From Escherichia coli (GTDB lineage Bacteria; Pseudomonadota; Gammaproteobacteria; Enterobacterales; Enterobacteriaceae), in the NCBI RefSeq assembly GCF_003790525.1, contig NZ_CP033635.1: a DNA stretch of 64,000 nucleotides, one strand, 5' to 3'. Both the position numbers and the translations under genes were made by a program. This document shows positions 19,811 through 20,124 of this stretch, one piece after another. Position 1 is the stretch's first letter, and the number at the start of each line of letters is the position of its first letter. A model generated the notes under the pieces. The model was not told the DNA's origin. It saw only the letters and a program-made list of their open reading frames with translations, and made no database searches.

Positions 19811-20124
19811 TTGGGGCCATTTTGACTCATAGAGGAAAGCATCGCGCACAAACTTTTTCAGTTTATTTGTTGGCTTAATATTCTATTGTTATCTTTATTT
19901 ATAGATTTTTATATTGCATGAGGTGGTTTTTGGAGAGAAGAATGAGGAAGATGCATCGAGCCACAGAAACGTTAGCTTTACATATAGCGGAGGTGATGTG
20001 AAATTAATTTACAAGAGAAATAATTTACATATCAAACAGTTAGATGCTTTTTGTCGTTTTTTGATATTTTTATGCTTGAGAAAAAATACGTAACTTATTT
20101 ATGATATGGACAGTTTGGCCCCAA
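19811..20124. mobile_element. fimS: fimS invertible phase-variation switch (314 bp) with 9-bp inverted repeats
   Basis: TTGGGGCCA at 19811-19819 and its reverse complement TGGCCCCAA at 20116-20124; exactly 314 bp between fimE and fimA. Confidence 0.9.
20076..20105 (+). promoter_or_regulatory. sigma70-like promoter inside fimS (TTGAGA-N18-TATGAT), here pointing toward fimE and away from fimA
   Basis: -35 TTGAGA at 20076-20081 and -10 TATGAT(A) at 20100-20105 on the plus strand, next to the fimE-proximal inverted repeat. Confidence 0.5.

Follow-up and report, generated by a model that had tools for sequence, protein, structure and literature searches.

The DNA studied here raises the question of which state of the phase switch for type 1 fimbriae is recorded in this Escherichia coli assembly, and of how far the recorded state speaks for the population of cells that was sequenced. 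The switch, fimS, is a 314-bp segment with 9-bp inverted repeats at its ends, and the promoter for the fimAICDFGH operon is located close to one of these ends. It is flipped by the recombinases FimB, which acts in both directions, and FimE, which acts from ON to OFF and is dominant, by cutting and rejoining within the repeats. The fimS of E. coli K-12, inverted by FimB and FimE, was reportedly described by Abraham et al. in 1985 and by Klemm in 1986. An initial annotation of the window, i.e. the whole 64-kb stretch of DNA that was analysed, had placed a 314-bp element at 19811-20124, noted a strong promoter-like motif directed toward fimE inside it, and read the switch as OFF.

The fim locus and its invertible element

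The type 1 fimbrial gene cluster is located on the minus strand of the window, based on the open reading frame map and on the RefSeq annotation of the near-identical E. coli SMS-3-5 record. Positions 1-40768 of the window align with the reverse strand of SMS-3-5 (NC_010498.1, 4926661-4967428) at 99.998 % identity, with one mismatch in 40,768 bp and no gaps. The genes fimB (21246-21848, minus strand, a bidirectional tyrosine recombinase of 200 aa) and fimE (20172-20768, minus strand, a tyrosine recombinase of 198 aa that switches from ON to OFF) were both identified from the open reading frame map and the SMS-3-5 annotation. They lie directly upstream of fimS and share the direction of the fim operon, an arrangement which is also seen in the collinearity with MG1655. 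The same two sources place fimA, encoding the major type 1 fimbrial subunit, at 19143-19691 on the minus strand. A 480-bp gap separates fimE and fimA, and fimS sits in that gap. The remaining genes of the operon that PfimA drives when ON, fimI-fimC-fimD-fimF-fimG-fimH, cover 13096-19078 on the minus strand, according to the SMS-3-5 annotation converted to window coordinates and the open reading frames.

The coordinates 19811-20124 given by the initial annotation for the element were exact: its 314 bp include, and are bounded by, two perfect inverted copies of the 9-mer TTGGGGCCA. One copy, at 19811-19819 on the plus strand, is proximal to fimA and corresponds to IRR in the usual fimB-fimE-fimS-fimA drawing. 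The other, IRL, is the reverse complement at 20116-20124, with TTGGGGCCA on the minus strand, and is proximal to fimE. The 64-kb window contains no further copies. Two copies were thus observed against 0.73 expected, and 14 of 100 shuffled sequences also reached two. Promoter-like sites in the AT-rich stretch were similarly at the level of chance (3 found, compared to 2.3 ± 1.4 in shuffles). As the statistics of the 9-mer pair and of the promoter motifs are weak by themselves, the identification of fimS rests on homology.

The homology is extensive. The minus strand of the region is collinear with fimE-fimS-fimA of K-12 MG1655, and the window shares with K-12 the gene order fimB-fimE-fimS-fimA, the length of 314 bp, the 9-bp repeats, the promoter hexamers, the Fis-site core and the C-rich central tract. 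It differs from K-12 by five substitutions inside the 314 bp, all of them outside the repeats and the promoter hexamers, by an A-run between fimE and IRL that is 1 bp shorter, and by a divergent fimA allele (169 of 182 residues of FimA are identical). Other short segments flanked by inverted repeats in uropathogenic E. coli, hyxS (flipped by FimX) and ipuS (flipped by IpuA/IpuB), likewise carry a promoter that is inverted by tyrosine recombinases (bioRxiv 10.1101/494401, PMC6083910). However, these have other loci, repeat sequences and target genes, whereas the element in the window is fimS itself. Taken with its recorded orientation, the element is almost certainly the canonical E. coli fimS phase switch in the OFF state.

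The complementarity of the fimS repeats also reaches about 13 nt outward into the flanks (19798-19819 and 20116-20137, 22 nt, 77 % complementary).

Orientation of the switch

The assembly shows the switch in phase OFF, and five lines of evidence agree on this, namely a BstUI assay, a HinfI assay, collinearity with reference genomes, the location of the Fis site and the strand of a C-rich tract. They support the OFF reading of the initial annotation, which had named orientation-specific PCR and comparison with reference sequences as possible checks. Both checks were carried out, the PCR in silico with two published assays, and both assays gave OFF fragments.

In the assay of the Dorman laboratory, the amplicon obtained with primers OL4 and OL20 is digested with BstUI, giving fragments of 187 and 539 bp in OFF and of 433 and 293 bp in ON (PMC9993118). 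Both primers match the window perfectly, and amplification and digestion in silico gave 188 and 539 bp, compared to 434 and 293 bp after inverting the 314 bp. The diagnostic BstUI site (CGCG) is at 19843-19846. In the assay of Muller et al., the amplicon of primers 2535 and 3137 is digested with HinfI, giving 200 and 402 bp in OFF and 118 and 484 bp in ON (PMC2636892 and its Table S1). The corresponding fragments in silico were 195 and 407 bp for the window, and 478 and 124 bp after inversion, with the diagnostic HinfI site (GACTC) at 19824-19828. Primer 3137 has two mismatches to the window strain. The in silico fragments deviate by 1-6 bp from the published sizes, and the patterns are unambiguous.

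Both assays were also applied in silico to other genomes. The OFF pattern was obtained with SMS-3-5, MG1655, UTI89 and an O157 genome as well as with the window, while strain M172-1 gave the ON pattern in both assays (434 and 293 bp; 478 and 124 bp). The UTI89 reference genome has been published as fimS OFF (bioRxiv 10.1101/494401), and the window is collinear with it. It is also collinear with the O157 genome, which carries a 16-bp deletion in fimS and comes from a pathotype, EHEC, whose switch is reportedly locked OFF, and the MG1655 reference has fimS in the same orientation as the window. The comparison with references gave the arrangement of UTI89, a documented OFF genome, and the opposite of that of M172-1, which gives the ON pattern.

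The Fis site has been assigned to the end of fimS that is distal to the promoter, and in phase OFF this end is on the right, at IRR (PMC9993118). The bases that were replaced by the mutagenesis primer FBSFOR2 in that study could be located in the window from the primer sequence: the reverse complement of GCCAACAAATA, the putative core of the Fis-binding site, is present and unchanged at 19864-19874 on the plus strand, 45-55 bp from the fimA-proximal repeat. As the promoter-distal Fis site adjoins fimA in the window, the promoter end adjoins fimE.

The composition of the central part of the element points in the same direction. At 19914-19953 the minus strand, i.e. the fimE-sense strand, has a C-rich, G-poor tract of 40 nt (16 C and 1 G), which is likely to be a rut-like part of a Rho-dependent terminator for the fimE mRNA in OFF. 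With the switch ON, the fimE-sense strand of this tract would be G-rich. Hinde et al. reportedly described, in 2005, OFF-specific terminator elements on the fimE-sense strand, among them a C-rich, G-poor tract in the centre that is approximately 40 bp long. A Rho-dependent terminator in fimS is known to shorten the fimE transcript only in OFF (PMC2647292).

Orientation in complete genomes and in the sequenced population

The frequency of the two orientations was surveyed in 5,426 complete E. coli genomes, using 240-bp queries that span the fimA-proximal junction in both orientations. Megablast with the whole fimE-fimA stretch was unfit for telling the orientations apart, since its coverage exceeds 80 % from the flanks by themselves, and it was replaced by the junction queries. 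The junction was matched in 4,719 of the 5,426 genomes. Among these 4,719 genomes, 4,465 (94.6 %) had the junction in the orientation of the window, i.e. OFF, and 247 (5.2 %) had the inverted junction, i.e. ON. The other seven had a partial match and neither junction in full; in MB15, for example, the match covers 22 % of the query. No megablast match to the fimE-fimS-fimA stretch was obtained in 690 of the 5,426 genomes. Against this baseline of 4,465 OFF and 247 ON, finding the switch OFF is the default case for an assembly and signals nothing unusual about the strain. The biology is established: the element is the fim switch of the textbooks, recorded in the state that is usual for it.

FimE has a strong preference for switching from ON to OFF, and it dominates FimB (PMC2647292), most wild-type cells are non-piliated (PMC9096935), and in rich medium at 37 °C the prevailing direction of switching is to OFF (PMC9277811). 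As fimE is intact and ON-to-OFF switching by FimE is dominant when cells are grown in the ordinary way in rich medium, DNA from a standard culture is expected to give an OFF consensus. As an assembly reports a single orientation, a predominantly OFF population, as proposed in the initial annotation, is something that we may reasonably infer from the record and not something that the sequence itself states.

It is possible in principle that the recorded orientation reflects a choice made in assembly and is hardly informative about the culture, the DNA having been a substantial mixture of ON and OFF from which the assembler or a finisher retained one path, perhaps taking K-12 as the model. Cultures are heterogeneous for phase-variable inversions, which assemblies reduce to one state, and the occurrence of the ON junction in 5 % of complete genomes indicates that both states do get recorded. 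However, consensus assemblers normally follow the majority of the reads, the intact and dominant fimE makes OFF the expected majority in ordinary culture (PMC2647292, PMC9277811), and the share of OFF among the junction-bearing assemblies of the survey also speaks against a mixture resolved arbitrarily. We therefore regard such an assembly choice as rather unlikely, and the ON/OFF ratio of the sequenced culture would be expected to be on the side of OFF.

Integrity of the switch

A second possibility is that the OFF state results from locking, as reportedly in EHEC or in ST131 lineages with a disrupted fimB, and not from the recording of a freely phase-variable switch in one of its states. Locked-OFF lineages do exist: regulatory mutations in EHEC have been reported to lock the switch OFF, and an insertion sequence is found in fimB in ST131 (bioRxiv 10.1101/494401). 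One assembly as such cannot show that fimS flips, and the O157 genome examined here, E. coli O157 AR-0427, itself carries a deletion in fimS. Its switch has the same orientation, repeats and promoter hexamers as that of the window. The difference is that O157 AR-0427 lacks the 16 bp found at 20044-20059 in the window (ATGCTTTTTGTCGTTT), shortly upstream of the -35 hexamer; two nearby substitutions accompany this deletion. As the 16 bp missing from O157 are present in the window, the window has the full-length version of fimS.

The other properties of the locus also argue against locking. The element has its full 314 bp, and both 9-bp repeats are perfect. FimE is identical to K-12 FimE in all 198 residues, and FimB is identical to K-12 FimB in 199 of 200 residues, with I86 in the window and V86 in K-12. 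The switch is not visibly damaged and the recombinase genes are intact.

Further evidence against locking comes from strain M172-1 (NZ_CP058714.1). Its flanks, with the repeats included, are 100 % identical to those of the window. It has the protein accessions of fimA and fimE in common with the window, and its 314-bp element is exactly reverse-complemented. The same alleles are thus carried in the inverted arrangement, i.e. the allele occurs in both states in nature, and the breakpoints are inside the 9-bp repeats, both at IRR and at IRL. Together with the 247 genomes having the inverted junction, this comparison suggests that the exchange which inverts the element takes place within the 9-bp repeats. 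With a full-length fimS, intact FimB and FimE and the inversion in M172-1, a locked-OFF switch was considered and judged, from the element and its recombinase genes, to be very unlikely.

Candidate fimA promoter

The initial annotation had described a strong sigma-70-like motif, TTGAGA-N18-TATGAT, at 20076-20105, beside the fimE-proximal repeat and reading toward fimE, and the coordinates and sequences that it gave are exact. The -35 hexamer TTGAGA (20076-20081) and the -10 hexamer TATGAT (20100-20105) are on the plus strand, separated by an 18-nt spacer, and they form the best sigma-70-like match in 19650-20300, agreeing at 10 of 12 positions. The motif is located 10 bp from the fimE-proximal repeat. 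As fimE and fimA are on the minus strand, it reads toward fimE and away from fimA. The other sigma-70-like matches inside fimS are weaker, with 9 of 12 positions each; one is on the plus strand at 19886-19915, and one is on the minus strand (TTGATA-N18-TAAATT, 20035 to 20006) and is directed toward fimA. The TTGAGA and TATGAT hexamers are the same in the window, MG1655, UTI89 and O157, i.e. in four strains.

TTGAGA/TATGAT is probably the mapped fimA promoter, which Olsen and Klemm reportedly placed at these hexamers in 1994. In the papers that were searched, neither the mapped -10 and -35 hexamers nor the start site of fimA was found in print, and the assignment of PfimA thus rests on position, conservation and the statement that the Fis site is promoter-distal. 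Judging from the spacing to the hexamers only, transcription would start at 20112 on the plus strand, at an A located 7 nt after the -10 hexamer and a few bases inside IRL. The transcription start of fimA is an A (PMC9096935). We conclude that fimS carries a candidate fimA promoter near its fimE-proximal end, which is predicted from these features to be active.

That the switch is in reality ON, with the true fimA promoter being the minus-strand TTGATA-N18-TAAATT match or some other sequence directed toward fimA and with TTGAGA/TATGAT being incidental, can be given almost no probability: a 9 of 12 match does point toward fimA, and in such AT-rich DNA promoter-like motifs are no more frequent than chance would give, but the two published assays, which were calibrated on fimA-lacZ or locked strains, give OFF for the arrangement of the window, the collinearity with UTI89, which is stated to be OFF, and with the O157 genome is against an ON reading, and so is the presence of the Fis site, defined as promoter-distal, at the fimA end.

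Consequences of the OFF orientation for transcription

With the switch OFF, the promoter end abuts fimE and the promoter would fire away from fimA, which would leave fimA cut off from its promoter and the whole fimAICDFGH operon without one. In the recorded orientation the fim operon thus appears promoterless, which matters when promoters, operons or fimbrial expression are predicted from this sequence. The promoter lies within DNA that can invert, and the assembly records one of its two states; pointing this out has value for annotation and its hygiene only.

In the OFF orientation, transcription of fimE would also run into the Rho-dependent terminator, and the fimE mRNA would be shortened. 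In addition, transcription from the fimA promoter would in OFF begin at about 20112, cross IRL and enter the 3' end of fimE, in antisense direction. It is possible to imagine that such an antisense RNA, specific to OFF, has a material share in keeping FimE low in OFF cells, next to the Rho-dependent terminator that is already known, and we consider this to be very unlikely.

The same region has a 16-nt imperfect inverted repeat, with arms at 20091-20106 and 20154-20169 that are complementary at 14 of 16 positions. One arm covers the -10 hexamer within fimS and the other closely follows the stop codon of fimE, the pair spanning IRL. With one arm inside and one outside the invertible element, the repeat is present only in the OFF orientation, and it might be part of OFF-specific control. 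A repeat as good as this pair was found in 3 % of 200 dinucleotide shuffles. An OFF-specific RNA hairpin formed by the repeat was considered and found no support: the 3' RNA of fimE that contains the repeat is not more stably folded than shuffled sequences are (z = -0.32), and in UTI89 there is an uncompensated change in one arm. The repeat is probably due to chance or to the symmetry of a protein site.

Surroundings of the fim locus

In the RefSeq annotation of MG1655 a small RNA, fimR2, is located immediately after fimA, and the equivalent position in the window is approximately 19098-19132 on the minus strand. Rfam and tRNA scans of the window gave no matches, including no Rfam family at the position of fimR2.

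The right-hand 36 kb of the window (28328-64000), which follows nanC-nanM and a sialate esterase gene that is truncated, is occupied by a dense anti-phage defence island. The first part, as identified with PADLOC, is on the minus strand and contains genes for a UvrD/GajB-like helicase (28328-30442), a DruE-like helicase of 2113 aa with a C-terminal HNH-like match (30439-36780), a type IIG restriction-methyltransferase or DrmMI-like protein of 1640 aa (36780-41702) and a DrmD-like SNF2 helicase (41705-44563). This four-gene block (28328-44563) has no clean match to one named defence system. It is followed by the Druantia type III genes for DruE3 (44787-51101) and DruH3 (51101-54460), also on the minus strand and found with PADLOC. 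According to the RefSeq annotation, the island continues with the type II Zorya genes zorA2/zorB2/zorE (54672-58145, plus strand), an HNH endonuclease (58972-59613, minus strand), a restriction endonuclease binding phosphorothioated DNA (59750-60622, plus strand) and a JetD-domain protein (61859-62902, minus strand).

Inside the island, the segment 58355-58853 is 94.5 % identical to part of nanM (approximately 24009-24535 in the window). In SMS-3-5 it is annotated as a frameshifted, truncated Kelch-repeat pseudogene, and it may be a remnant from insertion of the island, or from a rearrangement, beside the nan genes.
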